A stretch of 64,000 bases of DNA from assembly GCA_016783745.1 (NCBI GenBank), contig JADHVZ010000004.1:3544-67543 (forward strand). The letters are read 5' to 3'. The position numbers and the translations under genes were made by a program. A model generated the notes under the pieces. The model had not been told where the DNA came from. It searched no databases and saw nothing but the letters and a program-made list of their open reading frames with translations. Below, piece by piece: positions 1 through 40,115 of this stretch. The DNA is from Candidatus Omnitrophota bacterium (lineage in GTDB: Bacteria; Omnitrophota; Gorgyraeia; JAHIPI01). The first letter of the stretch is position 1. The number at the start of each line of letters is the position of its first letter.

Positions 1-3000
1 ATAGCGGCCTCACGGATACTATACCGGTTGATACGGTAGAGTATGATGGTACTTTACCGTCAACGGGCCTTAAAGATTCGGAAGGCATAACGATCACTGT
101 GTTGAGCGCCAATGATCCACCCGTCTTAAACCCCATAGGCGATAAGACGGTCAATGAAGATGTATTGCTCGAATTTACTATTACGGCTACGGATGGGGAC
201 GGCGATACACTAACGTACTCGGCATCTAATTTGCCTTCTGGCGCCGCATTCGACGCTCCGACACACACTTTCAGCTGGACGCCTTCCTATAGTAAGGCAG
301 GGGCATATCCGGATGTCCGCTTCAGCGTGGCCGACGGGATAACTACGGATACAGAAAATATAACCATTACCATAAACAACGTAAATCGCGCGCCCGTTTT
401 AAGCGCTATAGGGACAAAGAGTGTTGATGAGGGTGTACTCCTGACGTTTACGATCGCCGCTTCCGACGAAGACGGTGATTCCCTTACATACTCGGCGTCT
501 AGTCTGCCCGCTGGCGCGACATTCAGCGCAGCGGAAAAACGATTTAGCTGGACGCCGACGTTTATTCAAGCAGGCACATATTTAAATGTGCACTTTGAAA
601 TAACAGACGGCAGCATCGCGGATTCGGAAAATATAACTATAACAGTCAATGATGTTAATGCCCCGCCTTCTATGGATCCTATCGGTGATAAGAGCATTGA
701 CGAAGGATCGCTCCTTGAGTTTACGGTTACGGCATCTGATGTCGACGGAGATGCCCTGACGTATTACGCGTTGAATCTGCACTCCGGATCCGCTTTTGAT
801 GTTGATACGCAGGCCTTCAGCTGGACGCCCGGCTATACTGACGCGGGAGTCTACGACGACGTTATATTCATGGCAACCGACGGAGAAGAAGCCGAGGGCG
901 AGACAATAAGTATCACGGTCAGTGACATTAATGTGAAGCCCGTAATAGACTCACTTGACATGACCCCAGCCGCGACTATAAACGAAGGCGAAAGCATCAC
1001 CATTGTTATAAACTCGTCAGATCTTGACGGCGATGAGCTTACCTATTATGTACAAAATGAACCCGACGGTTCCGGTTTTATAGGCAGCGATTTCTACTGG
1101 AGGCCCGGATATGATCAAGCCGGTGAATACGCGGATGTGGAATTTACGGCATATGACGGCGTAGAATATTCAGATCCGTACACAGTGACTATAACCGTTA
1201 ACAATATGAACGATGCTCCGGTATTTATCACAGGCCCCACACTGATGTTATCTTATCAAGCCGGCGGTCAGGCATATGATGCGGCGATAAAAGACGGTTA
1301 TCTGTACACGGCGCACGGCGCGAATGGCTTAAAGGTGCTCGATATAAATAATCTGGACAATATCTATGTGGCGGATGCGATCAACGACTATCTTGCTTTA
1401 GAGGAAGTAGATATAGACGGCGACCTAGCTTATCTTATCGACAGCGGCAGTCTGGTCGAGATATTAGATGTAAGTGTTCCTTCTATGCCGTACAGAGAGG
1501 GAGATATCGTGGAAACGCTTGCCTCGGATGCGGCTACCAAAGATAATACCGCGTATCTGGCTTGCGGCAGCCAGCTTAAACTTTATGATATTACTGACAG
1601 GGATTTTCCGGAAGAAATAGAAGGCGTGGATCTGGGCGAAGCAAATAAAATAGCGGTAAGCGGAGATTACGCATACGCTATAAGCGCGGATGAGGACTTG
1701 AAAATAATAGACACGTTGACAAACCAGACCGTTGCTGCAAAGATATTCCAGGGGGCCGAAGCGCACGACGCTAAAGATATAGCGATTACGGGCAATAGCG
1801 CGTTTATAGCGAAAGATGCCTACGGCATTATCTGCTTTAACACCGAAGACAAAGTAAATCCCTCGGAGACCGGAGAGTTTTACATAGCAAATACTCTGGT
1901 TAAAGAGATATCTTCCTTTGGCGGGAACCGCTTATTCGCTCTCGGGTATCTGCCTGCCAGCAATAAATATAAACTTTTCTACATAGATACAACAGACCGC
2001 GCATCAATGGCTGAGGTCTGGTCGTATTCTTTTGCCGATGGCCTCGCCGTTAATGGTATGCACACGGACGGAAATACTGTATTTATCGCAGACTCAAGTG
2101 GTATGGACATGATCGTTTCTCCTCTTGAAGGCGAATATACCGTTGAAGCAGGGTCTACATTAAAAATAATGATATACGCTCTAGATCCTGACGCCGACAG
2201 CGTAACCTATTCTATGATCAACAAGCCTGAAGTAGACGAGACGGTATTTACCGATAACGAAGACGGGACAGCAACATTTTCGTGGACACCCACGGAGGCT
2301 CAGATAGGCTCTTACGGTGAGATATTCTTTATCGCGGATGATTCCTATCAGGCGGCCTGGTCGAATAGTCTTACTATCACAGTCGCGCAGAATGAAACGG
2401 CTATAATGCCGCCCTCCATTGACGAACACGCGAAGCTGCTCCTGCACTCCAACGGGACGGATGGTTCCACTACATTTACAGATTTAAGCAACTCAAATCA
2501 TACTCTAACAACTAACGGCTCTGCGCAAGTTGATACGGCCGAAAAAAAGTTCGGCACAGCTTCTTTATTACTTAACGGTGCCACCGATTATCTGACTGCT
2601 CCGGATTCGCCCGATTGGGACATATTTACTGCGAATTCTGACGATTGGACAATAGATCTGTGGATTAATCTGGCTAATGTAGGGCGCGACCATACACTTG
2701 TAAGCCAACGTTCCGGATATTACGATTATTGGATATTGGTACTTGGCTACAATCAGAAACTTAAATTTATGGCTCAAGATTCTTCTTTAGAGGTGTTTTC
2801 GCAGAGTAATGCGTTGTCCATCTTTGATAGTTGGCATCATGTTGTTCTTTGCAAGGTTGGGACTAAAGTCGCTTGTTACCTTGACGGCCAACAAGTTAGC
2901 TATAAAGAATTTGATCATAGTTTTAATTTTGTCGCTCCATTAGCAGTGGGGGCAAATTACCATCCTGGTAAAGGATGGCAAGATTTTGCTTCAGGCCATA

Positions 3001-3104
3001 TGGATGAGATAAGAATATCGCACAGCAATTATTTCAATGCCTCGCCTGATAGCGGCCTTTCGGATACTATACCGGTTGAGAGACAAGAGTACGCTGTAGA
3101 GTAA
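1..3104 (+). CDS. giant cell-surface repeat protein, 5'-partial (frame open to nt 1; codons phase from nt 3): four tandem He_PIG/cadherin-like Ig repeats, LVIVD beta-propeller-type repeats, a fifth Ig repeat and a C-terminal LamG/concanavalin A-like lectin domain
   Basis: ORF track starts at GTG 99, but the same frame has no stop back to nt 1, so the gene continues upstream. About 95-aa repeats 'P(V/S)(L/M)xPIGDK(T/S)(V/I)xE(D/G)xLLxFT(I/V)xAxDxDGD(T/S)LTY...FSWTP...AG(A/T)Y' recur four times. The middle has 'LxILDVS / LKLYDITD / LKIIDT' LVIVD-like repeats. The C-terminus has 'LLLHSNGTDGSTTFTDLSNSNHTLT...SLLLNGATDYLT...WTIDLWINL', a LamG_3-like jelly roll. Nt 1-33 nearly duplicate nt 3046-3078 (see findings). 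Confidence 0.7.
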   Translation, partial: SGLTDTIPVDTVEYDGTLPSTGLKDSEGITITVLSANDPPVLNPIGDKTVNEDVLLEFTITATDGDGDTLTYSASNLPSGAAFDAPTHTFSWTPSYSKAGAYPDVRFSVADGITTDTENITITINNVNRAPVLSAIGTKSVDEGVLLTFTIAASDEDGDSLTYSASSLPAGATFSAAEKRFSWTPTFIQAGTYLNVHFEITDGSIADSENITITVNDVNAPPSMDPIGDKSIDEGSLLEFTVTASDVDGDALTYYALNLHSGSAFDVDTQAFSWTPGYTDAGVYDDVIFMATDGEEAEGETISITVSDINVKPVIDSLDMTPAATINEGESITIVINSSDLDGDELTYYVQNEPDGSGFIGSDFYWRPGYDQAGEYADVEFTAYDGVEYSDPYTVTITVNNMNDAPVFITGPTLMLSYQAGGQAYDAAIKDGYLYTAHGANGLKVLDINNLDNIYVADAINDYLALEEVDIDGDLAYLIDSGSLVEILDVSVPSMPYREGDIVETLASDAATKDNTAYLACGSQLKLYDITDRDFPEEIEGVDLGEANKIAVSGDYAYAISADEDLKIIDTLTNQTVAAKIFQGAEAHDAKDIAITGNSAFIAKDAYGIICFNTEDKVNPSETGEFYIANTLVKEISSFGGNRLFALGYLPASNKYKLFYIDTTDRASMAEVWSYSFADGLAVNGMHTDGNTVFIADSSGMDMIVSPLEGEYTVEAGSTLKIMIYALDPDADSVTYSMINKPEVDETVFTDNEDGTATFSWTPTEAQIGSYGEIFFIADDSYQAAWSNSLTITVAQNETAIMPPSIDEHAKLLLHSNGTDGSTTFTDLSNSNHTLTTNGSAQVDTAEKKFGTASLLLNGATDYLTAPDSPDWDIFTANSDDWTIDLWINLANVGRDHTLVSQRSGYYDYWILVLGYNQKLKFMAQDSSLEVFSQSNALSIFDSWHHVVLCKVGTKVACYLDGQQVSYKEFDHSFNFVAPLAVGANYHPGKGWQDFASGHMDEIRISHSNYFNASPDSGLSDTIPVERQEYAVE

Positions 3105-9452: not shown

Positions 9453-10165
9453 TCTCTTTTTTAAAACCGTGGGTAAGGAATAAGGCGCAAAAAAAACTGG
9501 CCTCCCTTCCGGACGACAGAGGGATAAAGATGCTATTGCGCCTTGAGGCGCGGCTGTCTTCTTTGACGCTTGGGACGATAAAATTGGCGGAACGCTCAAG
9601 AGGGGGGATCCATCCCAAGCATTGGATCACGGATTTTGTGGGCTTCTTCCTGGACAACATCAATGCCTCCGATACGGTTCTTGAGATAGGATGCGCATAC
9701 GGGCACGTTGCCTCAAGGATAGCGGAGAAAGCCAAACATGTTACTGCCATTGACATCCGCCGGGACGCTATTGAAAAGGCCGGGCAGCAGTTCAACCGCA
9801 GCAATATCTCGTTTATCAGCGCTGACTTTTTTGATTTTACGGATGGAAGTAAATTTGATGTAGTGGTCATGTCCAATGTCCTGGAGCACATAGCGGACCG
9901 CGGGAGATTTTTGGAGAAAGCGGCCGTCTTAGGCGGGAAATTGCTTATACGCGTGCCGGCCTTTGACAGGGACTGGACGGTGCCTTATAAAAAGAAACTG
10001 GGCTTGGAATGGCGTTTAAACGATGGCCATGAAGTGGAGTATACGGAAGGCATGCTGAGAGATGAGCTTGGCCGCGCGGGCCTGTCCGTGAAATATCTAT
10101 GCTGTAAATGGGGTAACTATTGCTGCATAGCCGAGAAAAAAAGAGGCGATAACGGGCGATCATGA
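9449..10165 (+). CDS. class I SAM-dependent methyltransferase
   Basis: 'VLEIGCAYGHVASRIAEKAKHVTAIDIRRDAIEKA...FDVVVMSNVLEHIAD'. Confidence 0.75.
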   Translation: MISFLKPWVRNKAQKKLASLPDDRGIKMLLRLEARLSSLTLGTIKLAERSRGGIHPKHWITDFVGFFLDNINASDTVLEIGCAYGHVASRIAEKAKHVTAIDIRRDAIEKAGQQFNRSNISFISADFFDFTDGSKFDVVVMSNVLEHIADRGRFLEKAAVLGGKLLIRVPAFDRDWTVPYKKKLGLEWRLNDGHEVEYTEGMLRDELGRAGLSVKYLCCKWGNYCCIAEKKRGDNGRS

Positions 10166-11733
10166 ATATTATTTTTACAAGTTCGGGGATAGGCCTGAAG
10201 GTTTTTTATTCTATACTAAGAAGGATCAAAGATCCTCTGAAGGTCGAGAAGGCAGGGTTTTATGTAGCCCATTCGATGTACTATAGCCGTTTTGTCAAAG
10301 AACATCCCGATGTCGAATCTGACTATCAGGTAGTCAAAGAGTGGGAGATCCTGGAAAGGTCAAGAAAACTAAAGCCTGATCCTGAAAAAATCAGCGCCTA
10401 TGAAAAGGCCATCGGAAACCCTACCCTTTGGGAGCCTCTTGTATGCGATCGCAGGGTCTATCTGGGGAGGCGTTGTAAAGAGAAACAGGACTATCGCCCG
10501 TCGTTTACGCATGAGGGGATGCTGGGCATCCTTCAGGCGGCGCTGGAGGAGATCGAGGGCTTATTGGATAGAGTAAAGCCCGATCTTGTTTTTTCCCTGG
10601 ACCCTACTACGTTCGGGGATTATATCATGTATCTCTTTTGCAGGGCAAGGAACATACCTATGTTTTTTTTAAGGACAACAAAGATCAAGAACTACGTTGA
10701 ATTCAACGACGGCATGTTCGGCTGTTCCTCGCATATCTATAGGATGTTTCAGGAATATGAAAGAAATAACGCCTATGACAGGTGGGTAAAGGAAGCCGAA
10801 GCGTATCTGGAGGAAACTAGAAATAAGGATTCAAGGTATGAGGGGATGGTGCTTGTTTCACCCGAGAGAAAAAAAGAAGACCCGCCGGCCGGTATCGCGA
10901 GATCTCTCATAAGGGGATTGATGAGTGAGGCGGATTATCTCCTGAAATACAAGAGAGACAGCCACATCCCGGGTATCTTTATACCGTTCGCGTATCAAAA
11001 GTTTATTCTGCCTTTTAAGGCAAGGCTTCAACACCTGCGGTATTCGAGGTATTACGTGACAGAGAACAGGCTTGATTCCTTGAATTTCGCCTTTTATCCT
11101 CTCCAGTCTGAGCCGGAGATCTCGTCCTTGATCTGGGGTAAATCCTATATGAACCAGATAGAGACGATCAGAAATATTGCCCGAAGCCTTCCGGTTGGGA
11201 TGAAGCTTTTAGTAAAGGAACACCCCCGCGCCGTGGGGTATCGATCCTTCGGATATTACAAAAAGATTTTGCAAATACCTAATACCATGCTTATTTCTCC
11301 GTATGTAAAGGCGAGGCCTGTGATCAAGAGGGCTAAAGCCATTATTTCCATAGCTACTTTTGTGGCATTTGAGGCTGTAATACACAGGGTACCTTCGATA
11401 ATGCTGGGTGGGCCGCGGCCGTTTTCTATTTTACCGGATTCGATGATGCGTTACGTCCATAGCATGAATGACCTTGCCGCGGAGATCAACGGACTTTTAA
11501 GAGATTATGAATATAAAGAAAGGCCCCTCATTCATTATATCGCGGCTACCATGCGCGGGTCAGTGCCCGTTAATTACTTTACGACCATGTTAAAGAAGAA
11601 AAGCCGCTACGTTGGTTCAGCCAGCTGTGAATTTGAGGAGGAGATCGAGAAGTTGTCCCATTACACGATTCAAAGGGTCAAAGAAGTCATGGAAGCCAGA
11701 GAAGTTAAAGAAGCCAGAGAAGTGCTGTCATGA
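10162..11733 (+). CDS. KpsC/KpsS/LpsZ-like capsule-polysaccharide biosynthesis protein (GT-B-like, candidate ulosonic-acid transferase), paralog 1
   Basis: 523 aa. 'FAFYPLQSEPEISS...LLVKEHPRAVGY...AKAIISIATFVAFEAVIHRVPSIMLGG' gives an HP motif plus a GT-B C-terminal-type 'ST..EA....P' loop, as in beta-Kdo transferases and sialyltransferase-like GT-B enzymes. Motif-level only. Confidence 0.4.
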   Translation: MNIIFTSSGIGLKVFYSILRRIKDPLKVEKAGFYVAHSMYYSRFVKEHPDVESDYQVVKEWEILERSRKLKPDPEKISAYEKAIGNPTLWEPLVCDRRVYLGRRCKEKQDYRPSFTHEGMLGILQAALEEIEGLLDRVKPDLVFSLDPTTFGDYIMYLFCRARNIPMFFLRTTKIKNYVEFNDGMFGCSSHIYRMFQEYERNNAYDRWVKEAEAYLEETRNKDSRYEGMVLVSPERKKEDPPAGIARSLIRGLMSEADYLLKYKRDSHIPGIFIPFAYQKFILPFKARLQHLRYSRYYVTENRLDSLNFAFYPLQSEPEISSLIWGKSYMNQIETIRNIARSLPVGMKLLVKEHPRAVGYRSFGYYKKILQIPNTMLISPYVKARPVIKRAKAIISIATFVAFEAVIHRVPSIMLGGPRPFSILPDSMMRYVHSMNDLAAEINGLLRDYEYKERPLIHYIAATMRGSVPVNYFTTMLKKKSRYVGSASCEFEEEIEKLSHYTIQRVKEVMEAREVKEAREVLS

Positions 11734-12707
11734 AGAAGATCCTTATAACAGGCGGATGCGGGTTTATCGGAACGAATCTCATTGCCCGGCTGCTGAAGGA
11801 AAAAGACAGGCTGTTTATACGCGTTCTGGATAATCTGTCTGTTGGGACAGAAAAGGCGTTTGAGGACGTTTGCTCAGCTGATCCCGCTCCGGATGCGGAG
11901 CTTATCATAGGAGATATCCGCGATATTAAGGCCTGCATAAGGTGCTGTGAGGGGATTGATACTCTCGTGCATCTGGCCGCGGATACAGGAGTTGCCCCTT
12001 CCGTCGAAAATCCCCGCGTGGATATGGAAGTCAATGTCATCGGCACAGTCAATCTTCTAGAGGCGATGCGTGAGCGCGGAGTCGAAAGATTTATTTTCGC
12101 TTCAAGCGGAGCTCCGCTGGGTGAGGCCAAACTGCCGATCTGTGAGGAAAGCGCGCCAAAGCCGGTATCCCCGTATGGCGCAAGCAAACTGGCAGGGGAA
12201 GGATATTGTTCCGCGTATTATAGGACGTACGGCATAAAAACATTTACTTTGCGGTTCAGCAATGTGTACGGGCCGCGGTCTTTTCATAAGCAAAGTGTTG
12301 TCGCCAGGTTTATCAGGAGCGCGCTGGAAGGCAAGGCCATTGAGGTTTACGGCGATGGCAATCAGACGAGGGATTTCATACATGTTGATGACCTTGTTCA
12401 AGCAATAGTCCTGGCCGCCGGCGCAGAGGCCGGAGGAGAGGTTTTTCAGATAGCGACAAGCCGGGAAACAACTATAAGCGAGATAGCGTCACGTATTGAA
12501 AAGATAATCGAAGCGAAGGTAGGCATGACCACGGATATCGCTTATACCGGTTCCAGGCGCGGCGACGTAAGAAGAAATTTCTCAGATATTTCTAAGGCGA
12601 AGAAAATATTGGGGTTTGCCCCGTGTGTGGATTTGGCAGAGGGGCTGGAACGCACAGTCAACTGGTTTATCAGTGAGGGTGCCCCTATAGGAGAAAAAAG
12701 TGAGTAG
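11730..12707 (+). CDS. NAD-dependent sugar epimerase/dehydratase (extended SDR, GalE-like)
   Basis: 'KILITGGCGFIGTNL' Rossmann motif and 'YGASKLAGE' YxxxK catalytic dyad. Confidence 0.8.
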   Translation: MKKILITGGCGFIGTNLIARLLKEKDRLFIRVLDNLSVGTEKAFEDVCSADPAPDAELIIGDIRDIKACIRCCEGIDTLVHLAADTGVAPSVENPRVDMEVNVIGTVNLLEAMRERGVERFIFASSGAPLGEAKLPICEESAPKPVSPYGASKLAGEGYCSAYYRTYGIKTFTLRFSNVYGPRSFHKQSVVARFIRSALEGKAIEVYGDGNQTRDFIHVDDLVQAIVLAAGAEAGGEVFQIATSRETTISEIASRIEKIIEAKVGMTTDIAYTGSRRGDVRRNFSDISKAKKILGFAPCVDLAEGLERTVNWFISEGAPIGEKSE

Positions 12708-14094
12708 TAAAGCCGGTATAAAAGTAAGTGTTATAATAACCGCGCGTAATTACGGGCAATATCTCAGCCAGTGCATAGACAGCGTCCTTAGTCAGAAATA
12801 CACATTTTATGAGATCATAGCGGTAAACGACGGAAGTACGGACAATACCGCGGAGATACTCGAAGGTTATCGCGCAAAACACCCCGATAGAATAAAAGTA
12901 ATCACCCTGGCAGGCGCAGGGCTGGCGAAGGCATGCAACGCCGGTATACGGAATTCAAGCGGGGAATACATAATCCGGCTGGACGCCGACGATTATTTTG
13001 ACGAGAACATCCTGCTCGTAGAAGCGAATATCCTTGATAATAATCCGGATGTCCACCTTGTTTACACGGACTATTACCGGATCGACAAACACGGAGGGAT
13101 CATAGATTCATACCGCCTTCCCAAAGTGAATGACGAAGTAGAGCTTCTGGACAGAAGCCCTCTGGCTGGCGGCGCCATGTTCCGGCGGGAATGCTACGAG
13201 GCGATCGGCGGATATAGCGAGGAGCTGCGCTATCAGGAAGATTATGATTTTTGGATACGTTTCATAGATAGGTTTAAGGTATATAACGTAAACCTGCCCC
13301 TCATGTATTATCGCAGGCACAGCGCGAGCATGTCGAACAATTTCGATGAGCGGATGAAGGCGCGCCAGTATGTAAAGAAAAAGTTTGTGGATGAGAAAGG
13401 GTACCGAAAGAATAAAAAGATTTTTGCCGTTATTCCCGCTATGGGGCATTTCAGGGGCCACGAGAAACTGGCGCTTAGAAAGCTAAACGGCAGGCCTCTG
13501 ATCGCATATACGATCGAGCAGGCATTGAAAACAAAATTGATAGCCAGGGTAATCGTCTCGACAGAGGACGAAGAGGTAGCAAATACAGCGACGGAATTGG
13601 GAGCGGACGTTCCTTTTCTGCGGCCTCAGGAATTGGCCAGGACGAGCGTAGGTGTGGATGAGGTGCTGCGGCACATGGTCGGAGTGTGGCGGGAGAGTGG
13701 CGAAGCCGTACCCGATCTGATCGTAGTCCTGCCGTATATAGCTGTGTTTCAGAAAGAACGGCACATAACCGAAGCAATAGACACTGTTTTGCTTCATGAT
13801 ACTGACTCGGTCATAGGCGTAACGACCGACCTTACCTTTCATTGGAAGCCCGGTAAATACGGGTTGGAACCGGTCGGCTACCATAAGCGCCTGTTGAGAG
13901 AAGACAGGGAGACCGTTTATAAAGAAACCGCGTCGATCTATGTTCTAAAGACGGCAATAGTGGAGGCAGGCGGCTATCTGGGGGAACAAATAGGGCATAT
14001 TGAGATGTCCCTCCGAGACGCGTGGCGCATCCAGAGCGACTTTGATTTTTTGGTAGCTGAGAAGATATTGGAAGAGGCGGTATACAAAGAATGA
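12700..14094 (+). CDS. fusion protein: N-terminal GT2 glycosyltransferase plus C-terminal NeuA-like cytidylyltransferase module with a degenerate CTP-binding loop
   Basis: N-terminus 'VSVIITARNYGQYLSQCIDSVLSQ...AVNDGSTDNT...RLDADDYF' is a GT2 (DxD). The C-terminal half 'IFAVIPAMGHFRGHEKLALRKLNGRPLIAYTIEQAL...VIVSTEDEEV' aligns to 'IPARGGSKGIPGKN' of NeuA, but with R->M and G/S/K substitutions. Confidence 0.7.
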   Translation: MSSKAGIKVSVIITARNYGQYLSQCIDSVLSQKYTFYEIIAVNDGSTDNTAEILEGYRAKHPDRIKVITLAGAGLAKACNAGIRNSSGEYIIRLDADDYFDENILLVEANILDNNPDVHLVYTDYYRIDKHGGIIDSYRLPKVNDEVELLDRSPLAGGAMFRRECYEAIGGYSEELRYQEDYDFWIRFIDRFKVYNVNLPLMYYRRHSASMSNNFDERMKARQYVKKKFVDEKGYRKNKKIFAVIPAMGHFRGHEKLALRKLNGRPLIAYTIEQALKTKLIARVIVSTEDEEVANTATELGADVPFLRPQELARTSVGVDEVLRHMVGVWRESGEAVPDLIVVLPYIAVFQKERHITEAIDTVLLHDTDSVIGVTTDLTFHWKPGKYGLEPVGYHKRLLREDRETVYKETASIYVLKTAIVEAGGYLGEQIGHIEMSLRDAWRIQSDFDFLVAEKILEEAVYKE

Positions 14095-15086
14095 TGAAGA
14101 TGACCAGTCTTACGGATAAGACCGGGCTTAATGCCAGGCTCAGGAATGTCAGAAAGCGCGGTTTTAAACCGCGCTACTGGTGGTACCGTTTCAAGTGGAA
14201 TTATTATCCGCGATTGAGGCTGGCAAATCCAGTACCGCTCCACGTCGATATTGAATCCACGGATGCCTGTAATCTTAGATGCGCGATGTGTATACACGGC
14301 CAGGGCGGGGTAAAGGAGACCGGCTTCATCAAGCCCGAGCTTACTTATAAAGCGATCGACCAGTGCGCGGAGCTGGGTGTCTACTCGATAAAGTTCAACT
14401 ATCGCGGTGAACCTTTACTGCATAAAAACCTGGCGGATTTCGTGAAGTACGCTAAACAGAGGGGCATAATGGAGGTCCAGTTCAATACAAACGGCCTTCC
14501 CGTAAGCGAAGTTGAGATTGAAGCGTTGATAAAGGCAGGGCTCGACCGTATTATATTCTCGGTTGACGGCGCTAAGAAGGAAACGTATGAGAGGGTCCGA
14601 ATCGGCGGGAGTTATGAAAGATTACTTAAGAATATAGATACGTTTCTTGAAATCAAAAGAAGGGACGGTTTGAAGAAGCCTTTCATCCGGGTTCAGATGG
14701 TAAAAGATCCCGGAGGGGAAAAAGAGGCCAGGCAGTTTATAGAGTTCTGGACGCGGAAAGGCGTGGATAATATTGCGGTCATCAACAAGCAGGACAGGGA
14801 CAACAGGGGTGGCGCCCCGCTTAAAGACGGTAAAAGGCCCCTGGGCAGGACCTTCTGCGACCAGCCCTGGCAGAGGTTGGTTGTGACCAGGGACGGCAAG
14901 GTATTGATGTGCTGCGGAGATTGGTACAGAAAAACGGTAATAGGGGATTTAAATAAGGAAAGCTTGAAACAGATATGGCACAGTGAATTATTGAGAGGAC
15001 ATCGCTCTATGATCGCCAGAGGCCTTCTTGCGGATATCGCGGCCTGCAAGACCTGTTTCAGGCCGACAACATATAAGTGGGATTGA
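14091..15086 (+). CDS. radical SAM enzyme with C-terminal SPASM/twitch-type Cys-rich domain, paralog 1
   Basis: 'DACNLRCAMC' is CxxxCxxC, followed by a 'GEPLL' glycine-rich SAM motif. The C-terminal cysteines are 'CDQPWQRLVVTRDGKVLMCCGDW...CKTCF'. Confidence 0.85.
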   Translation: MMKMTSLTDKTGLNARLRNVRKRGFKPRYWWYRFKWNYYPRLRLANPVPLHVDIESTDACNLRCAMCIHGQGGVKETGFIKPELTYKAIDQCAELGVYSIKFNYRGEPLLHKNLADFVKYAKQRGIMEVQFNTNGLPVSEVEIEALIKAGLDRIIFSVDGAKKETYERVRIGGSYERLLKNIDTFLEIKRRDGLKKPFIRVQMVKDPGGEKEARQFIEFWTRKGVDNIAVINKQDRDNRGGAPLKDGKRPLGRTFCDQPWQRLVVTRDGKVLMCCGDWYRKTVIGDLNKESLKQIWHSELLRGHRSMIARGLLADIAACKTCFRPTTYKWD

Positions 15087-15087
15087 A

Positions 15088-16101
15088 GTGAATATAAAGG
15101 GACGTGAAATAAAGCCATATACGTCTATATTTGTGATCGCGGAAACGGCCTCAAGCCACGAAGGAAGGGTTGATATCGCCAAAAAGATGGCCGATGCCGC
15201 AGCCGCAGCGGGAGCCGATGCCATTAAGTTTCAGATGCTGGATGCCGACAGCCTGCTTGTGCCGGGGCATCATAAATATAAAAGCTTCAAAGAGATCCAA
15301 TTTTCGGAGCGGGAGTGGAGGGACATCATTGCTTATGCCAGGTCCACAGGATTATGCATTATTGCCGAGATATTTGACGATAAGAGCTTTGTGCTGGCCG
15401 AGCAGTTGAATATTGATATCTACAAGGTTCCTACTTCGGACCTGACAAATCCGTTCCTACTGTCCGGCATGGCGGCCAGTGGAAAGTTTGTCATTCTATC
15501 AGTCGGCTCTGCCACAGAAGCCGAAATCGAGTTCGCGGTTAAGGCGTTCGAGTCTAAAGGTAATAAAAATTTAGCCTTGATGCACGGTTTTCAAAACTTT
15601 CCGACAAAAATCGAGGATACGAAATTCAGACTTCTGGACTTTTTGAAGAGAAGGTACCCCTACTATATAGGGTTCGCGGATCATGTAGACGCGGAAAGCG
15701 AACTCGCGCTGGTTTTGCCGGCGGCCGCAATCGGATACGGGGCGAGTATTATCGAAAAACATATCACCTTGGACCGCTCCTTAAAAAAGAGGGATTATTA
15801 TTCGGCGCTTGATCCCCGGGAATTTTCCCGCATGGTGGGCCTGATAAGGGGCGTTGAGAAGGCATACGGTTCTCCGGGGTCAGGGCATTCTCCCGCGGAG
15901 GCCGCATACAGGAAATTAATGAAGAAAAAGATAGTCGCGGGCCGCAATATCGCAAAAGGGCAGATGATCCGCATGGAAGATATTATGTTTAGAAGGACGG
16001 ACGAAGACGGTTTGATCCCTGGCGAATATCAAAAGATCTTGCGGCAGGCAAAAAAAATTATGCCCGAGTATTCCGTGATAAGGGAAGAAGATGTCGATTA
16101 A
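15088..16101 (+). CDS. NeuB-family (non)ulosonic acid synthase, paralog 2 (start reassigned to GTG 15088, immediately after the upstream stop)
   Basis: 'IFVIAETASSHEGRVDIAKKMADAAAAAGADAIKFQM...LSVGSATEAEIEFAV...' plus a C-terminal SAF-like 'KKIVAGRNIAKGQMIRMEDIMFRR'. The ORF-track start 15028 overlaps the upstream gene, and GTG 15088 gives an N-terminus matching the paralogs. Confidence 0.8.
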   Translation: MNIKGREIKPYTSIFVIAETASSHEGRVDIAKKMADAAAAAGADAIKFQMLDADSLLVPGHHKYKSFKEIQFSEREWRDIIAYARSTGLCIIAEIFDDKSFVLAEQLNIDIYKVPTSDLTNPFLLSGMAASGKFVILSVGSATEAEIEFAVKAFESKGNKNLALMHGFQNFPTKIEDTKFRLLDFLKRRYPYYIGFADHVDAESELALVLPAAAIGYGASIIEKHITLDRSLKKRDYYSALDPREFSRMVGLIRGVEKAYGSPGSGHSPAEAAYRKLMKKKIVAGRNIAKGQMIRMEDIMFRRTDEDGLIPGEYQKILRQAKKIMPEYSVIREEDVD

Positions 16102-16855
16102 TCCAAAAATAGTCAGTTTGGTCGCCGTGAGGATGAAGTCCGTCAGGCTTCCGGGCAAGGCGCTGCTGCCTCTGTGCGGCAGGCCTGTTCTATGGCATTT
16201 GATGGGCCGCATTCTAAGGGCAAGGCTTCCCGGTAAGGCAGTCATCTGCACTTCGACACTTGAAGAAGACGATCCTATCGAGACATTCGCCGAACAGAAT
16301 GATTTCGACCTTTTTAGGGGGCATCCGGATAACGTCCTGCTGCGTTTTGCGGAGGCCGGCGAAAAATACAGAGCCGGACATATCGTAAGAATAACAGGAG
16401 ACAACCCCCTTACGGATCCGTACCTTATCGATGAGATGGCACGGCTTCACATCGCGGAACAGGCAGATTATACCTTTACGGAGGATCCGCCGCGGGGCAC
16501 AAGGCCCGAGATCATCTCGATGGCGGCAATAAAAAGGTGCCTGGAGCTGGCGGAAGAACCCGACAACAGCGAGTACATGACGCTATATTTCAAAGATTAC
16601 CCCGGGGTATTCAGGAATATAAAATATTCATGCCCTCAGAGCTATTGCCGCCCGGATTACCTGGTAACAATTGATACGCCGGAAGATCTTGAGGTTGTAA
16701 AAAGAATCTATTCCTCTCTCTACAACAAAAATAATGAATTCACATTAAGAGAGGTTATAGATTTTTTAGATTCAAGACCTGAGATCGATCACGCCGGCAG
16801 AATAAATGACCCGGCAGAATCGTTTAAAGTGAATACAGGACTTAAGGCGCTATGA
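16091..16855 (+). CDS. CTP_transf_3 cytidylyltransferase of the SpsF/PseF-like subtype (CMP-ulosonic acid synthetase)
   Basis: 'IVSLVAVRMKSVRLPGKALLPLCGRPVLWHLM...ITGDNPLTDPYLIDEMARLH' has the P-loop R...K(S)xRLPGK typical of PseF/SpsF-like cytidylyltransferases. Confidence 0.7.
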   Translation: MSINPKIVSLVAVRMKSVRLPGKALLPLCGRPVLWHLMGRILRARLPGKAVICTSTLEEDDPIETFAEQNDFDLFRGHPDNVLLRFAEAGEKYRAGHIVRITGDNPLTDPYLIDEMARLHIAEQADYTFTEDPPRGTRPEIISMAAIKRCLELAEEPDNSEYMTLYFKDYPGVFRNIKYSCPQSYCRPDYLVTIDTPEDLEVVKRIYSSLYNKNNEFTLREVIDFLDSRPEIDHAGRINDPAESFKVNTGLKAL

Positions 16856-17595
16856 AGGCATTATGCGTGATCCCGGCCAGAGGCGGCTCTAAAGGCATAC
16901 CGGGTAAGAATATCAGGCTGGTGGACGGCAAGCCGCTGATCGGGTTTGTCATCGAAGCTGTCGTGCGATCGGGTGTTTTTGATAAGGCTATTGTATCAAC
17001 GGACTCGGCAGAGATAGCGGATATCGTCAATAGATATTATCCCGAAATCGATGTACCTTTTATCAGGCCCGCAGAACTTGCCGGGGATGATGTGCCTGTT
17101 ACGGCAGTGATAAAACACGCTGTTGATTTTTATGAAAAAGAAGATTTTGGACTCGTATTTTCAGTACAGTCGACAAACCCATTTACGAGGCCTGAGACAT
17201 TGACCGGCATGCTGGATATCATGAATGGGGATAAGTGTGATTCTATAGTGACCATTGCAAAAATACTTCATTTGCATCCGTTTCGTTCTTACCGGTACGA
17301 CTCAGAGACGATGCGGATCTCCCCGCTTACGCAGTACACAAAGGAGTTATTTCTGCAGAAGCAGGACAGGCCGGACGCTTACGGCTTGACCGGCGGAGTA
17401 CTTGGCCGCAGATCTCGATTGATCAAAGAGTGGGCCGGCAAAGGACTTGCCCTCGGAGAAGATCAACGGGGATATGTGGTCCAAGAGGAAGAGGCATTTG
17501 ACCTGGATACGCCTTTTGAGATGAACCTCTTTGAGAGCTTGATTTCCGCCAGAAGCGCAAAGGCAGCCATGGCAATGGAGGAAGGCCGACGATGA
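16852..17595 (+). CDS. NeuA-like cytidylyltransferase, paralog 2
   Basis: 'ALCVIPARGGSKGIPGKNIRLVDGKPLIGFVIEAV'. Confidence 0.85.
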   Translation: MKALCVIPARGGSKGIPGKNIRLVDGKPLIGFVIEAVVRSGVFDKAIVSTDSAEIADIVNRYYPEIDVPFIRPAELAGDDVPVTAVIKHAVDFYEKEDFGLVFSVQSTNPFTRPETLTGMLDIMNGDKCDSIVTIAKILHLHPFRSYRYDSETMRISPLTQYTKELFLQKQDRPDAYGLTGGVLGRRSRLIKEWAGKGLALGEDQRGYVVQEEEAFDLDTPFEMNLFESLISARSAKAAMAMEEGRR

Positions 17596-18626
17596 AAGGC
17601 CTGAAGTTATATTCGACTACCGGAAGAAAGCATCTATATCTGCTGAATGAAGAAACAGACCGTATAATGGTGGATGCTGTCGGCAGAGAATACCTGAAAT
17701 ACAGAGAGATATGGGAGAAGGTCACAAAGGCAGAGCTGGAGCCCGATTTTCCGCCGCAGATCGATTTTGAGCTTAGTACCACTTGCAACTATTTTTGCCC
17801 CATGTGCCCGGCGGAACTGCGGGCGCCCGGCTCAAAAATGAAATGCATGGATTATTCATTATATACAAAGGTATTGAGCGACGGTTTTAAAAATGGGCTG
17901 AAATCCGTGGAATTAAATTATGTAAATGAGCCCCTTATGCTGAGGGACATAGCAAGATTCATCTCATACGCAAGGGAGGCCGGCGCTTTGGATGTACTTC
18001 TCAATTCAAACGGGAGCCTCTTGACAGAGGAGATGTCCGAAAAAATCATCTCAGCCGGCCTGACCAAGCTCTCGATATCCCTTGAGGCGGTAACCGAAGC
18101 TACATACGGCAAAATAAGGTACGGAGGAAATTTCGGCAAAGTCGTCAATAACGTCTTAAAATTTATTGAAATCAGAAAGGCTATGGGGAAGAGATTACCG
18201 TTACTCAAGCTGACGTATCTCATGACTAAGGTGAATGTCCATGAGTTCGACGAATATATCGAATACTGGAAGGACAAGGCCGATCTGATCTCTATTCAAA
18301 ACCTCACTAACCCGCTTGAGGGAGAACGCCGGCAAAAACTAGAAGACCTTTTCGCCATAGACGGTATCAAATTAGATTCCGACGAAGCCTTCAAGTGTGT
18401 CTTGCCGCTGCAAAGAATGGTGGTGAGGCATGACGGTACTGTTTTGGCCTGCTGCCATTTCAGGGGGATCGGACTTGTTCTCGGAAACGTAAAAGAACAG
18501 AACATAGTTGATATTTATCACAGCGGTTTTGCCGCAAGGATAAGACGGCTATTAATGGCCGGGGAATATGCAAAGATACCTGTCTGTAAGAGGTGCGTTG
18601 AGAATTCCCGGCTGGCAAATTACTGA
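17592..18626 (+). CDS. radical SAM enzyme with SPASM/twitch-type domain, paralog 2
   Basis: 'TTCNYFCPMC' is CxxxCxxC, followed by 'NEPLM'. The C-terminal cysteines are 'CVLPLQRMVVRHDGTVLACCHFRG...CKRC'. Same architecture as 14091-15086. Confidence 0.85.
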   Translation: MKGLKLYSTTGRKHLYLLNEETDRIMVDAVGREYLKYREIWEKVTKAELEPDFPPQIDFELSTTCNYFCPMCPAELRAPGSKMKCMDYSLYTKVLSDGFKNGLKSVELNYVNEPLMLRDIARFISYAREAGALDVLLNSNGSLLTEEMSEKIISAGLTKLSISLEAVTEATYGKIRYGGNFGKVVNNVLKFIEIRKAMGKRLPLLKLTYLMTKVNVHEFDEYIEYWKDKADLISIQNLTNPLEGERRQKLEDLFAIDGIKLDSDEAFKCVLPLQRMVVRHDGTVLACCHFRGIGLVLGNVKEQNIVDIYHSGFAARIRRLLMAGEYAKIPVCKRCVENSRLANY

Positions 18627-30813: not shown

Positions 30814-31845
30814 ATGATGGCATATTTCAAAGGGCAAAAGCGCAGGTTATCGTTTATGGAAAAGTATATGACAGGCTTGAGGCCTGTCGATTGCCCCGTA
30901 TGCGGGAGCGGTAAGTCTACGGTGCTGGGGGCCAGAAGCAGGGGCGGGCTCAGTATAAATTCGGTGCTATGCGCCAACTGTTCGCTGGTGTACCTTAATC
31001 CCAAGCCCTTGCCGGAAAAATACCACGAGTTTTACGCCTCCGGAGACTACAGGCGTTTTTTGAATATTGTCAAGGGAGCAAAAACCGGCGATGATATCAA
31101 CAATTTCTTTACCGAAAAAAAGTTTATTGATAGAAAAGAATATGGCGCGCAAATAGCCAGAAAGTATTTCAGCAATATTTTGGTAAAGGACGACTTATAT
31201 TTCGATTTCGGATGCGATTCCGGCGGCATTATGGCGGGCGTGCGCGATGAAACAGGCTGCAGGATCATGGGTAATGAGCCCTCCAGGCTATGCGCGGATT
31301 TTATCCGCGAAAGACTTGGGGTCCGGATACTTTGCTGTGGCATGGAAGGCATGTGTGATTCCGATAAGGAAATATATAAAGGCAAGGCGAAAGCCGCATC
31401 ACTCATCGGCGTACTGGAACATGTCAATGACCCGATCGCATGTTTGAATATCGCCTATGGGGTACTCTCGGACGGGGGATTCCTCTACGTTGAGAGCCTC
31501 GATATCCTTAAACGCATGGAAAGGAATAAGGAGTCGGTTGAAGATGCGGCAACAATAGATCACCAATATTATTTCCATGAAGACGTGTATAAATATATGC
31601 TGCGATCCTGCAATTTTGAAGTTAAGAGATTCGATTATGACGAAAAAGGCAAGATCATGAGGGTGTTGGCTCAAAAGGTCGGGCCTGAATCGCCTAAAAA
31701 TAGATTTGAAGCAGCAGAAATAGTAGATAGGATCTCGCGGCTGAATAGCGAGGCAGCGCGCTATCAAGCGGGTATTTTCAGAAGGGCCGGAAAGAAGGCG
31801 GCACAAGCGGCAAGAAAGGTGCTAAAGTGGAAGTCACCCTCATAA
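30814..31845 (+). CDS. class I SAM methyltransferase with N-terminal zinc ribbon
   Basis: 'CPVCGSG...CANCS'; 'YFDFGCDSGGIMAGV' is motif I; 'ASLIGVLEHVNDP'. Confidence 0.7.
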   Translation: MMAYFKGQKRRLSFMEKYMTGLRPVDCPVCGSGKSTVLGARSRGGLSINSVLCANCSLVYLNPKPLPEKYHEFYASGDYRRFLNIVKGAKTGDDINNFFTEKKFIDRKEYGAQIARKYFSNILVKDDLYFDFGCDSGGIMAGVRDETGCRIMGNEPSRLCADFIRERLGVRILCCGMEGMCDSDKEIYKGKAKAASLIGVLEHVNDPIACLNIAYGVLSDGGFLYVESLDILKRMERNKESVEDAATIDHQYYFHEDVYKYMLRSCNFEVKRFDYDEKGKIMRVLAQKVGPESPKNRFEAAEIVDRISRLNSEAARYQAGIFRRAGKKAAQAARKVLKWKSPS

Positions 31846-39185: not shown

Positions 39186-40115
39186 ATGAGTTATTTAAGC
39201 GATATAAAAAAGGTGATACGCACCAACGAAGCTATTGAGTTCCCGAAAGTCATCCTCATAGACAACTTCAACGGATGCAATCTGCGCTGTTCAATATGCG
39301 ACCACAAAAATATGGAAAAATACAGGCGCATTCAAAAAATGGATCTCGAGTTGTATGAAAAGGTCATAGATGAGATAGCCGTGATGGATCCTGATGCCAG
39401 GGTATGGGAGATATTTTTTGGTGACCCGTTTTTATGTAAAGATATGCCTATGAGGATAAAATATGCGAAAGATAAAGGCCTTAAAGACGTAGTTCTCAAT
39501 ACAAACGGCGCATTGATGACTCCTGAGAGAGCTAAACCCGTTATCGAAGCCGGTCTGGATGCCATGTATGTGGGCATTGACGCTACGAAGGCCGGGACCT
39601 ATGATAAGATAAGAGTAGGGGGAGATTTTAATAAAACCGTGGAAAATACGCTGAGCTACAGAGATCTATTGAAAAAATACGGCACGGAAAACCAAAAGCT
39701 ATATGTTCAATTTGTGGTCTGCGGCATAAACAGCGATGAAGCGGAAGGTTTCAAAGATTTTTGGACGAAGGAAAAAATTAATGTTAAGATCCGGCCAAAA
39801 GTGAGCTGGGCGGGCCTGGTAGAGGCCATGAATCTACGTGACAACAAGGGCCTGACCCGCAAACCTTGTTACTGGCTCATGCGGACGATCAATATATGCG
39901 CCGACGGTGAGGTTACGCTTTGCTCGGTAGATGTCCATTGCCATGTAAAGTGCGGCAATGCGGCGGATAAGACTATAAAAGAGATATGGGACGGCAAACT
40001 CAAAGAATACCGCGCCATGCATAATGCGGGCAGGTATGATGCGCTGCCGCCCATGTGCAGAGATTGCGGAGACTGGCAATCTACCTATGCGGAGTTTTTT
40101 AAGCCCGCGCTTTAA
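39186..40115 (+). CDS. radical SAM enzyme with SPASM/twitch-type domain, paralog 3
   Basis: 'FNGCNLRCSICDH' is CxxxCxxC, followed by 'GDPFL'. The C-terminal cysteines are 'CYWLMRTINICADGEVTLCSVDVHCHVKCGN...CRDCGDW'. Confidence 0.85.
   Translation: MSYLSDIKKVIRTNEAIEFPKVILIDNFNGCNLRCSICDHKNMEKYRRIQKMDLELYEKVIDEIAVMDPDARVWEIFFGDPFLCKDMPMRIKYAKDKGLKDVVLNTNGALMTPERAKPVIEAGLDAMYVGIDATKAGTYDKIRVGGDFNKTVENTLSYRDLLKKYGTENQKLYVQFVVCGINSDEAEGFKDFWTKEKINVKIRPKVSWAGLVEAMNLRDNKGLTRKPCYWLMRTINICADGEVTLCSVDVHCHVKCGNAADKTIKEIWDGKLKEYRAMHNAGRYDALPPMCRDCGDWQSTYAEFFKPAL

Follow-up and report, generated by a model that had tools for sequence, protein, structure and literature searches.

Gene content and organization of the locus

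The window analysed here is a stretch of 64,000 nucleotides from a Candidatus Omnitrophota bacterium. On its forward strand lies a complete open reading frame (ORF; 12700..14094, 464 aa, GTG start, TGA stop) in which a GT2 glycosyltransferase domain is fused to a NeuA-like domain, as the first-pass annotation had recognized. An AGGAG ribosome-binding site (RBS) lies 8 nt 5' of the GTG. The ORF shares its first 8 nt with the end of the upstream gene, and its stop is interleaved with the ATG of the next gene (ATGA). A protein identical to the ORF product is found on four contigs, and the ORF is typical of its family, differing from the consensus at no more than 3 of the 134 positions that are well conserved.

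All genes discussed next are on the same strand. The upstream gene (11730..12707) encodes an NAD-dependent NDP-sugar epimerase/dehydratase (Pfam PF01370, 204 bits), and an epimerase is also directly upstream of the fusion at several other loci. Downstream follow a radical SAM/SPASM enzyme (14091..15086), a NeuB-family nonulosonic acid synthase (15028..16101; PF03102, 179 bits) and two stand-alone cytidylyltransferases supported by Pfam and NCBIfam matches: an SpsF/KdsB-like one with RLPGKAL...TGDNP (16091..16855), and a canonical NeuA/PseF-type ORF with IPARGGSKGIPGKN ... DLD (16852..17595). The window contains four NeuB genes and four intact stand-alone cytidylyltransferases in total, and three paralogues within it carry the loop IPARGGSKGIPGKN or IPARGGSKTVPKKN, compared with IPAMGHFRGHEK in the fusion. 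Actual CMP activation at the locus can be left to the stand-alone cytidylyltransferases.

The fusion architecture is found in 257 species-representative genomes of bacteria and archaea and defines a widespread, uncharacterised family. We retrieved at least 118 full-length homologues and used two alignments, a close set (n = 118) and a broad set of fusions (n = 81).

The GT2 domain

The N-terminal domain (aa 8–230; 12721..13389) has a GT-A fold and retains all catalytic motifs. It matches Pfam Glycos_transf_2 (PF00535) over aa 10–130 (E 1.2e-31, 110.4 bits against a cut-off of 23.3), while the nearest named NCBIfam matches are EpsE, TuaG and WcaA. An AF2 model of the whole protein has a pLDDT of 91.9 and a pTM of 0.90, and its GT2 domain is matched by Foldseek to PDB 6p61 (TM 0.94, 36% identity), with K4CP, SpsA and WrtF among the other matches. 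The DGS nucleotide-binding motif (D44-G-S46) is present upstream of R93-L-D-A-D-D-Y99 (12976..12996), which holds the DxD metal/NDP-sugar motif. R93, L94, D95, A96, D97 and D98 never vary among the 81 fusions or in the 118-sequence alignment; more generally, the nucleotide-sugar/metal motifs DGS, RLDADD and PLxxYRxH are invariant across the family. Many basic residues in the acceptor half are also invariant among the 81 fusions (e.g. R162, R205, H207 and R222), and 81 of the 223 GT2 columns show at least 90% conservation. Mean pairwise identity is 0.63 for the GT2 domain and 0.46 for the C-terminal domain, the GT2 value being the higher in 99% of pairs. The GT2 domain is under strong purifying selection. 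Our best reading is that it is an intact-looking and probably active glycosyltransferase, whose exact reaction we infer below from its genomic setting.

PDB 6p61, a structural-genomics entry, is a Leptospira borgpetersenii glycosyltransferase from a family of ∼220 aa proteins that shares RxDADD, PLxxYRxH and the NeuB and cytidylyltransferase neighbours with the fusion GT2. Members are 60–87% identical across phyla and occur in the gene order Fe-ADH–GT2–NeuB–cytidylyltransferase. Unlike the fusion, they stand alone without a C-terminal domain; their loci carry Fe-ADH and aminotransferase genes where fusion loci have radical SAM/SPASM instead, and W185, which is invariant in the fusion family, is Arg in 6p61.

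Fold and active-site residues of the C-terminal domain

A variable linker (aa 231–240; 13390..13419) with the highest column entropy in the protein (2.86 bits) separates the two domains and lies between helix 215–233 and strand 241–246 in the predicted model. The C-terminal domain (aa 241–464; 13420..14091) is identified by profile and Foldseek as NeuA/PseF-like. Its direct family matches are partial: Pfam CTP_transf_3 (PF02348) covers just 56 residues (aa 258–313, E 9e-11, 42.4 bits against a cut-off of 22.6) and begins at profile position 17, so that the P-loop is skipped, and NCBIfam PseF (TIGR03584) scores 81.2 bits over aa 243–376 only, under its cut-off of 205.7 bits. By contrast with these partial matches, the whole-domain fold is shared with NeuA/PseF/LegF enzymes (1eyr, 6ifd, 9ftb/9ftc, 9t4z and 1qwj; PF02348). 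The family profile matches the NeuA structures 9ftb, 9t4z, 6ifd, 1eyr and 1qwj with E values of 1e-25 to 1e-20, and Foldseek against NeuA-type structures gives a TMt of 0.83–0.89. With a pLDDT mostly above 90 in this region, the model predicts that the C-terminal half is a full CMP-nonulosonic-acid synthetase (NeuA/PseF type) fold.

Residues were mapped by aligning a 40-sequence family profile to residues 3–227 of PDB 1eyr (N. meningitidis NeuA; E 5e-22). Where canonical enzymes have the P-loop PARGGSKGxxxKN, the fusion, in which the domain sits behind a GT2, has a degenerate loop IPAMGHFRGHEKLA that is one residue short (aa 245–258; 13432..13473). Nucleotides 13432–13467, att ccc gct atg ggg cat ttc agg ggc cac gag aaa, encode IPAMGHFRGHEK; this is a deterministic reading of the DNA, so no chance model applies to it. 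In the loop, R12 of NeuA becomes M248, S15 becomes F251, K16 is conservatively replaced by R252 and N22 becomes A258, while K21 corresponds to L257 without a gap and to K256 if the loop is taken as one residue shorter. Outside the loop, P345-Y-I-A-V349 (13732..13746) stands in place of the canonical Q-P-T-S-P, with Q104 replaced by P345 and P108 by V349, the latter in the fusion of this window alone among family sequences. R443-I-Q445 (14026..14034) stands in place of the Mg2+-binding D209-I-D211, so that both Mg2+ ligands are gone. The loop degeneracy proposed by the first-pass annotation therefore stands, together with further losses (Q104, D209 and D211) that it had missed. Its replacement of Arg by Met is borne out, as is that of Lys by Arg at K16, but a change of Lys to His is not, and gap placement restores the second Lys (K256 at K21) but not the Arg.

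Other nucleotide- and sugar-site residues are kept. R308 (13621..13623) is the equivalent of R71, and the region FHWKPGKYGLEPVGYHKRLLRE (aa 376–405; 13825..13914), which aligns with the domain-swap dimerisation hairpin of NeuA, contains K383 (K142 equivalent), an invariant G388 and R400 (equivalent of R165, the sugar-carboxylate Arg). A basic residue at the R173 position and the sugar-pocket Tyr (Y179) are retained as well. In N. meningitidis NeuA, R12 and K21 contact the phosphates, N22 the ribose and R71 reads the cytosine base, the roles of R12, S15, K16, K21, N22, R71 and R165 having been described together (PMC6580227). R12 and K21 are required for catalysis, activity is not measurable in D209A, and kcat falls 15,000-fold in D211A (PMC2901514). 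Mapped onto these roles, the losses in the C-terminal domain are those of triphosphate and metal chemistry, and the base-recognition residue is kept.

Family-wide constraint on the C-terminal domain

These losses are general in the family. At the D209 position the close set has R84/H19/K14 and no Asp (0/118), and the broad set has Asp in 3/81. The R12 position is M49/R41 in the close set; R252 is found in 87/118 and K256 in 70/118, while in the broad set Lys never occurs at the ungapped K21 position and Asn never at the N22 position. The cytosine-reading Arg is present in 117/118 and 81/81 sequences, and the carboxylate position has Arg or Lys in 107/118 and 72/81. The sugar pocket is less constant in distant members (at the Y179 position Tyr remains in just 42/81), and very few polar residues of the C-terminal domain are conserved across the broad family.

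In the fused domain, variability is greatest in the P-loop (2.13 bits), lower in the N-lobe (1.78) and lowest in the hairpin (1.47). In the stand-alone NeuA-type enzymes of the same loci, the P-loop has 0.95 bits, the N-lobe 1.89 and the hairpin, the least conserved, 2.26; R12 is kept in 28/30, K21 in 29/30 and N22 in 28/30. Compared with the stand-alone cytidylyltransferases at these loci, the constraint pattern of the fused domain is thus inverted. In an archaeal subgroup (PARAESRINGGK ... HID), the loop has its canonical length and contains the Arg and both basic residues, and the second Asp is present too, which suggests that some members may retain activity.

Taken together, the C-terminal domain is probably not a working canonical cytidylyltransferase. 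The pseudo-enzyme reading raised in the first-pass annotation is supported because the Mg2+ Asps are lost, the catalytic loop evolves freely and intact stand-alone cytidylyltransferases lie alongside. Its other suggestion, an altered nucleotide specificity, finds no support because the sole invariant residue of the nucleotide site is the cytosine-reading Arg.

Genomic context of the fusion

Of the 51 well-flanked loci, 50 have NeuB within 10 kb of the fusion; the two genes are directly adjacent in 35/81. An intact stand-alone cytidylyltransferase is nearby in 45/51 and a radical SAM/SPASM gene in 25/51. Most of the stand-alone cytidylyltransferases near fusions are SpsF/KdsB-like (57/87) with conserved catalytic motifs, and loci L001–L007 have one stand-alone cytidylyltransferase per NeuB. 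NeuC is nearby in only 3/51 loci, and 8 of the 10 loci with precomputed annotation have no PseG-type or NeuC-type Pfam match; absence of NeuC and PseG was scored within about 10 kb of flank, and a distant Capsule_synth/Epimerase_2-like protein occurs in 25 loci. At two minimal loci (L079 and L082), the fusion has a Wzx flippase and a GT4 as neighbours, a setting expected of an ordinary glycan-assembly transferase and one that counts against the hydrolase-plus-sensor model described below.

Proposed function

Relying on these comparisons, we lean towards the view that the fusion combines an active GT2 performing an in-pathway step with a dimerising pseudo-cytidylyltransferase module that binds a cytidine-nonulosonate (NulO) ligand. 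The GT2 clade, whether or not it has the C-terminal domain, adjoins NeuB and a cytidylyltransferase, in flanks (about 10 kb) where NeuC is almost always missing and PseG was not seen, and it is unusually conserved across phyla, which suggests that its substrate would be small, at the nucleotide-sugar level and inside the pathway, rather than a variable glycan. The C-terminal domain would have no CMP-sugar synthesis left and would dimerise the whole protein. We give about even chances to its still binding a cytidine/NulO ligand, most simply CMP-NulO, the product of the pathway. The fused domain may also serve channelling.

A specific and tentative version, which we favour among such models although it is less likely than not, is that the GT2 acts as a hydrolase and the C-terminal domain as a sensor: the former would free a hexose from its NDP carrier or pass it to NeuB, the step that other systems leave to PseG or NeuC, while the C-terminal domain would sense CMP-NulO and gate that committed step. 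PseG, which hydrolyses a UDP-sugar in pseudaminic acid synthesis, was reportedly described by Liu & Tanner in 2006 as a 'masked glycosyltransferase'. PseG and NeuC have GT-B-type folds, and H. pylori HP0326 is a natural PseF–PseG fusion. These hydrolases and hydrolysing 2-epimerases (PseG and NeuC/LegG) have a GT fold, deliver free hexose to a NeuB-type synthase and have their genes next to those for NeuB and a cytidylyltransferase, but we propose them as functional analogues only, since the fusion GT2 is a GT-A/GT2 protein with DxD, and a hydrolase role here would be by analogy. The fusion ORF has no Pfam or NCBIfam match indicating homology to PseG (GT-B, GT28-like) or Epimerase_2, and our literature search found no precedent for a dedicated nucleotide-sugar hydrolase of the GT-A/GT2 type. 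Moreover, the invariant basic residues in the acceptor half suit an anionic acceptor better than water.

The sensor gating would parallel the feedback of CMP-Neu5Ac on animal GNE, in which the end product acts through an allosteric site on the committed step of the same pathway (PMC13214540). The same source also describes a dead phosphatase-like C-terminal module that vertebrate CMP-sialic acid synthetase keeps for oligomerisation (PMC13214540). The folds and organisms are unrelated to those of the fusion, and the analogy is one of logic and not of homology.

Alternative explanations

An ordinary role in glycan assembly, with the GT2 adding a hexose to a NulO-containing acceptor held by the dead domain, seems unlikely to us. 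The acceptor could be a lipid-linked glycan, or CMP-NulO itself to yield a CMP-disaccharide, although we know of no CMP-activated disaccharide donor. GT2s of polysaccharide loci are normally transferases, the nearest named NCBIfam matches are EpsE, TuaG and WcaA, and the invariant Arg/His residues of the acceptor half, the retained cytosine-reading and carboxylate-binding residues and the Wzx and GT4 neighbours at L079 and L082 all fit such a role. However, cross-phylum conservation of the GT2 is far above that usual for glycan-acceptor transferases, and the minimal Fe-ADH–GT2–NeuB–cytidylyltransferase modules lack assembly genes.

Rather less credence goes to a pure structural scaffold, a domain kept only to dimerise the GT2 by domain swapping and no longer binding any ligand. 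The hairpin, the best-conserved part of the fused domain and the least conserved in real enzymes (PMC6580227), and the scarcity of conserved polar residues across the broad family agree with it. A precedent comes from vertebrate CMP-sialic acid synthetase, whose inactive phosphatase-like module reportedly serves as a tetramerisation interface (Oschlies 2009). Against this, the cytosine-reading Arg is retained in every broad-set fusion while its neighbours vary, and the carboxylate position remains Arg or Lys in most; these Args may also be structural, so the argument is not decisive.

It is improbable that the domain is still an active nucleotidyltransferase in a bifunctional protein, making CMP- or other NMP-sugars with non-canonical residues, for which R252 and K256 would serve the phosphates and basic or other acidic residues would replace the DxD. 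Both loop residues are fairly conserved in the close set, a one-residue gap puts K256 at K21, the archaeal subgroup has its canonical-length loop and second Asp, and the metal ligands of KdsB lie at other sequence positions than those of NeuA (PMC2901514). The near-total lack of Asp at the D209 position, where D209A kills NeuA activity (PMC2901514), the lack of Asn at N22 and a P-loop that is the most variable rather than the most conserved segment speak against it, as do the well-sampled loci that each already have one intact stand-alone cytidylyltransferase per NeuB. Loci without a nearby stand-alone enzyme have fused domains that are no more canonical.

Still more remote is a repurposed C-terminal domain that binds CMP-NulO and moves the nonulosonic acid to an acceptor rather than to pyrophosphate, which would make the protein a hexose–NulO synthase with two GT-A domains, designed like K4CP or PmHS2. 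The basic residue at the D209 position would then stabilise CMP-phosphate as it leaves, in the manner of metal-independent sialyltransferases, and the domain would represent a new sialyltransferase-like family of nucleotidyltransferase origin. Retention of cytosine and sugar-pocket residues with loss of only PPi and Mg2+ residues is in its favour; what speaks against it is that the broad family has hardly any conserved polar residues that could be catalytic. The K4CP (2z86) and PmHS2 (8vh7) polymerases have tandem GT-A-like domains, as the fusion does, but its second domain is a nucleotidyltransferase derivative without DxD and not a GT2. Foldseek matches K4CP to the fusion GT2 domain only (∼230 columns) and aligns PmHS2 over ∼430–520 columns, with a poor full-length superposition (rmsd about 20 Å).

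Finally, a frameshifted gene pair as considered in the first-pass annotation, an assembly chimera or a pseudogene can be set aside, as no supporting evidence was found and the reading frame is unbroken, has an RBS and is coupled to its neighbours, its protein is identical on four contigs and close to consensus (3/134 deviations), and the architecture recurs in at least 118 proteins and 257 genomes.

Implications

Many bacteria and archaea have surfaces coated with nonulosonic acids (sialic, legionaminic and pseudaminic acids and related sugars), whose pathways are considered well mapped. Our results reveal a conserved GT2 partner of NeuB that occurs unfused in Leptospira and numerous other phyla and, in 257 genomes, is fused to an apparently dead CMP-sugar synthetase, at loci mostly without the known hexose-releasing enzymes. 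The automatic annotation of fusion proteins as 'CMP-N-acetylneuraminic acid synthetase' (JGI names) is probably wrong, and counting them as synthetases would overestimate the CMP-sugar activation capacity of uncultured lineages. If the GT2 does supply the NeuB substrate, it would carry out an obligatory step of the pathway in a new way; if a CMP-sugar is sensed by the dead domain, that domain would be an enzyme recycled as a product sensor of its own pathway.

The fusion gene and its two domains

The open reading frame at 12700–14094 (+ strand) encodes a 464-aa protein (hereafter the fusion) from a GTG start with AGGAG 8 nt 5' of it. Both ends run into neighbouring genes: the start by 8 nt into the stop of the epimerase gene upstream, and the stop into the ATG of the gene that follows (as ATGA). 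Pfam assigns aa 10–130 to Glycos_transf_2 (E 1.2e-31) and only aa 258–313 to CTP_transf_3; the latter match begins at profile position 17 and thus skips the P-loop. The NCBIfam PseF model scores 81 bits over aa 243–376 (cut-off 205.7). The N-terminal domain shows every GT2 feature that could be tested. The C-terminal domain (C-domain) has the fold and profile similarity of the NeuA family but lacks its P-loop and DxD motif and falls below the equivalog score, so filing it as a synthetase of CMP-activated nonulosonic acids (NulOs) is unwarranted. Database names of relatives range from 'glycosyltransferase' to 'CMP-N-acetylneuraminic acid synthetase'.

The loop described as degenerate in the first-pass annotation is indeed so: nt 13432–13467 read IPAMGHFRGHEK, where three stand-alone paralogues in the window have IPARGGSKGIPGKN or IPARGGSKTVPKKN. 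A frameshift or two-gene origin is rejected by the continuous reading frame and by conservation of the architecture among relatives, and an artefact is excluded. Decay in this lineage alone is likewise rejected, as the query agrees with the family consensus at all but 3 of 134 well-conserved positions, which is typical of its members.

AlphaFold2 modelling with a 118-sequence alignment gave a pLDDT of 91.9 and a pTM of 0.90. In Foldseek searches against the PDB, the best match of the N-domain is 6p61 (36% identity, TM 0.94), a Leptospira glycosyltransferase without assigned function, followed by K4CP, PmHS2, SpsA and WrtF. Matches of the C-domain include the V. cholerae, N. meningitidis and murine synthetases, together with the Aeromonas (CMP-Pse) and Pp (CMP-Kdn) synthetases (TMt 0.81–0.89 for all).

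Residues lost and retained in the C-domain

A profile of 40 C-domains was aligned to N. meningitidis NeuA (PDB 1eyr, residues 3–227, E 5e-22), with an index that agrees with the published K142, R165, R173, N175, Y179, F192, F193, D209 and D211. In NeuA, R12, S15, K16 and K21 contact the phosphates, N22 the ribose; the cytosine base is read by R71, and the 'catalytic arginine' R165 binds the sugar carboxylate (PMC6580227). Activity of the D209A variant is not measurable, and in D211A kcat falls 15,000-fold (PMC2901514). In the fusion, R12 (M248), S15 (F251), N22 (A258), Q104 (P345), D209 (R443) and D211 (Q445) are lost, K16 is conservatively replaced by R252, and K21 aligns with L257. By contrast, R71 (R308), K142 (K383), R165 (R400) and Y179 (Y414) are kept, as is the basic character of R173 (K408). 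By this alignment, the C-domain appears to be without triphosphate and metal chemistry while retaining the residues for cytidine and acidic-sugar recognition.

Among the substitutions proposed earlier, Arg to Met stands (M248 at the R12 position) and Lys to Arg is found at K16, but Lys to His has no support in the alignment. Shifting the gap so that the loop is one residue shorter, a check suggested with that proposal, recovers the second Lys (K256 at K21) and not the Arg. An altered base specificity, also raised there, is rejected on account of the invariant cytosine-reading Arg (117/118 fusions of the close set, 81/81 of the broad set, both defined below). The query also carries a Val (V349, window 13744–13746), unique in the family, at the P108-equivalent Pro of the (T/S)SP motif, which is otherwise near-invariant (113/118 and 80/81).

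Distribution and variation of the family

The protein database contains 997 relatives. Among the best 120 (49–100% identical), 118 span the full length and have both domains (the close set); sources are Omnitrophota, Nitrospirota, Planctomycetota, Elusimicrobiota, Magnetospirillum, Aenigmatarchaeota and Hadesarchaea. When each species was represented by a single genome, 257 genomes proved to have relatives, among them those of the cultured Haloarcula regularis, Halosimplex and Wenzhouxiangella. A second set consists of 81 distinct fusions taken from genomes, with 31–100% identity to the query (the broad set). In the close set, the R12 position is mainly Met (49), Arg (41) or Val (11), the D209 position Arg (84), His (19) or Lys (14) and never Asp, and the D211 position Glu (54), Asp (29) or Gln (8). 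In the broad set, Asp occupies the D209 position in 3 of 81 fusions, while the ungapped K21 position is never Lys and the N22 position never Asn.

Genomic context

The window makes up a single long glycan locus whose genes are co-directional. It has four genes for the NulO synthase NeuB (starting at 5474, 15028, 18654 and 26345), as many intact cytidylyltransferases of the stand-alone kind (8712, 16091, 16852 and 22594), NeuC (6490), a HAD phosphatase (22086) and several methyltransferases. Since four stand-alone cytidylyltransferases are available for four NeuB, the fused domain is a fifth, supernumerary copy; the two counts are also equal in loci L001–L007. That four NeuB and four cytidylyltransferases lie within 5474–27214 of a single co-directional locus suggests that one Omnitrophota-type genome could make up to four different CMP-ulosonic acids. 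Interspersed among these genes are four radical SAM/SPASM genes (14091–15086, 17592–18626, 39186–40115 and 40134–41111) and two B12-binding radical SAM genes (31827–33296 and 33293–34744). All ORFs of at least 300 aa in 1–64000 are on the + strand and GC skew is positive in each 2-kb bin, so the window has a single transcriptional and replication orientation.

In the 51 fusion loci flanked by 6 kb or more on each side, NeuB is a neighbour in 50, a stand-alone cytidylyltransferase in 45, radical SAM/SPASM in 25 and NeuC in 3. NeuB abuts the fusion (gap of at most 100 nt) in 35 of 81 distinct loci and lies within 1.5 kb in 60. No Epimerase_2 or PseG-type Pfam match occurs in 8 of the 10 loci carrying precomputed annotation. 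Where no stand-alone cytidylyltransferase lies near the fusion, the fused domain might have been expected to be canonical; it is not. The commonest stand-alone partner (57/87) is the SpsF/KdsB-like type, represented in the window at 16091–16855; this protein gives a weak match to the N-terminal region of NCBIfam TIGR04321 ('spiro-SPASM protein'), a model that describes a natural cytidylyltransferase-like and radical SAM fusion.

Two further proteins encoded in the window deserve mention. The 523-aa product of 10162–11733 has a weak Capsule_synth (KpsC/KpsS-like) match, and a jackhmmer search from it retrieved ∼530–640-aa proteins in 25 fusion loci, a set that merged with proteins of which some carry a precomputed Epimerase_2 annotation; it could be a NulO transferase or a NeuC-like enzyme. 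The Pfam copy used is without PF27859 (LIC12162) and PF27878 (PFTS_polysacc), and leaves large neighbours of the fusion unannotated. The second, a predicted 1001-aa surface protein (with He_PIG, Big_9, cadherin-like, PKD, LVIVD and LamG domains), is encoded at 99–3104, directly 5' of a Wzz-like gene and the glycan locus, and may be a glycan carrier.

The GT2 domain also has stand-alone relatives of ∼220 aa, the 6p61 family, with about 4,000 matches that are 60–87% identical across phyla. Modules of Fe-ADH, GT2, NeuB and cytidylyltransferase, with an aminotransferase, occur in Leptospira, a deltaproteobacterium and an Acidoferrales genome (L088 5910–9440, L089 5910–10636 and L090 4558–10886) and may represent a variant of the NulO pathway that is so far uncharacterised. 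Linkage to NeuB is thus a property of the GT2 clade itself, and the dead domain is an add-on of one branch. In the deltaproteobacterial MAG, 8876–10636 of L089 encodes a 586-aa NeuB–SAF–CTP_transf_3 fusion, which unites the synthase with the activating enzyme.

Constraint and possible function

Constraint was compared, as column entropy in bits per region, between fusion C-domains and 30 stand-alone NeuA-type enzymes from the same loci. The P-loop has 2.13 bits in the fusion versus 0.95 in the stand-alone enzymes, and therefore selection on its catalytic loop is relaxed; the dimerisation hairpin has 1.47 versus 2.26 bits, and therefore selection there is tightened; the N-lobe has 1.78 versus 1.89 bits. 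The stand-alone enzymes keep R12 (28/30), K21 (29/30) and N22 (28/30), and the motifs particular to the SpsF/KdsB-like type, RxKxxRLPGK and TGDNP, are conserved in that type (n = 54). It is likely that the C-domain is not a working canonical cytidylyltransferase. That this putative pseudo-enzyme still binds a cytidine–NulO ligand, predicted from its invariant cytosine-reading Arg and retained carboxylate Arg/Lys, has an even chance, and dimerisation is predicted because the hairpin is constrained.

In the GT2 half, 81 of 223 columns reach at least 90% conservation, and mean pairwise identity is 0.63 versus 0.46 in the C-domain (GT2 higher in 99% of pairs). We infer that the substrate of the GT2 domain is small, invariant and internal to the NulO pathway. 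A possible, tentatively favoured model is that the domain releases the hexose from its NDP carrier, or hands it over, for use by NeuB; by sensing CMP-NulO, the dead domain would control this committed step, a parallel to animal GNE, in which CMP-Neu5Ac gates the committed step (PMC13214540). The data themselves show intact, strongly constrained GT2 motifs, a NeuA-fold domain without catalytic metal ligands and with a freely evolving P-loop, intact cytidylyltransferases beside the fusion, and an obligate link to NeuB.

A rather unlikely alternative is an ordinary assembly transferase with an acceptor-recognition module, or an enzyme that glycosylates CMP-NulO itself. It is supported by basic residues of the GT2 acceptor half that are invariant among the 81 broad-set fusions, and by Wzx/GT4 neighbours in two loci (L079 and L082). 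The C-domain could serve as a dimerisation scaffold only, for which the C-terminal module of vertebrate CMAS is a precedent (PMC13214540); this is distinctly improbable. Residual or non-canonical cytidylyltransferase activity seems very doubtful for the family, and is most plausible in an archaeal and related subgroup that reads PARAESRINGGK ... HID, with a canonical-length loop, the Arg, both basic residues and the second Asp. Decay therefore runs as a gradient across the family, with the query's clade at its more degenerate end for the loop. A repurposed CMP-NulO transferase is very unlikely, a reading weakened by the dearth of conserved polar catalytic candidates across the broad family (n = 81).

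Full-text searches retrieved no description of the fusion, of a pseudo-cytidylyltransferase or of a GT-A sugar hydrolase. A B. subtilis sps study goes no further than to rule out SpsA (GT2) as the CMP-Leg transferase, and papers on Halorubrum and Leptospira NulOs, which use normal LegG/NeuC, do not mention the fusion protein. The degenerate loop is by itself unremarkable, being a trait of the whole family. Judged from sequence comparison, the fusion would carry a pseudo-enzyme domain of known fold in an uncharacterised, widespread NulO-pathway protein. A conserved GT2 partner of NeuB without assigned function, combined with inverted constraint, poses a directly testable question about a pathway thought complete.
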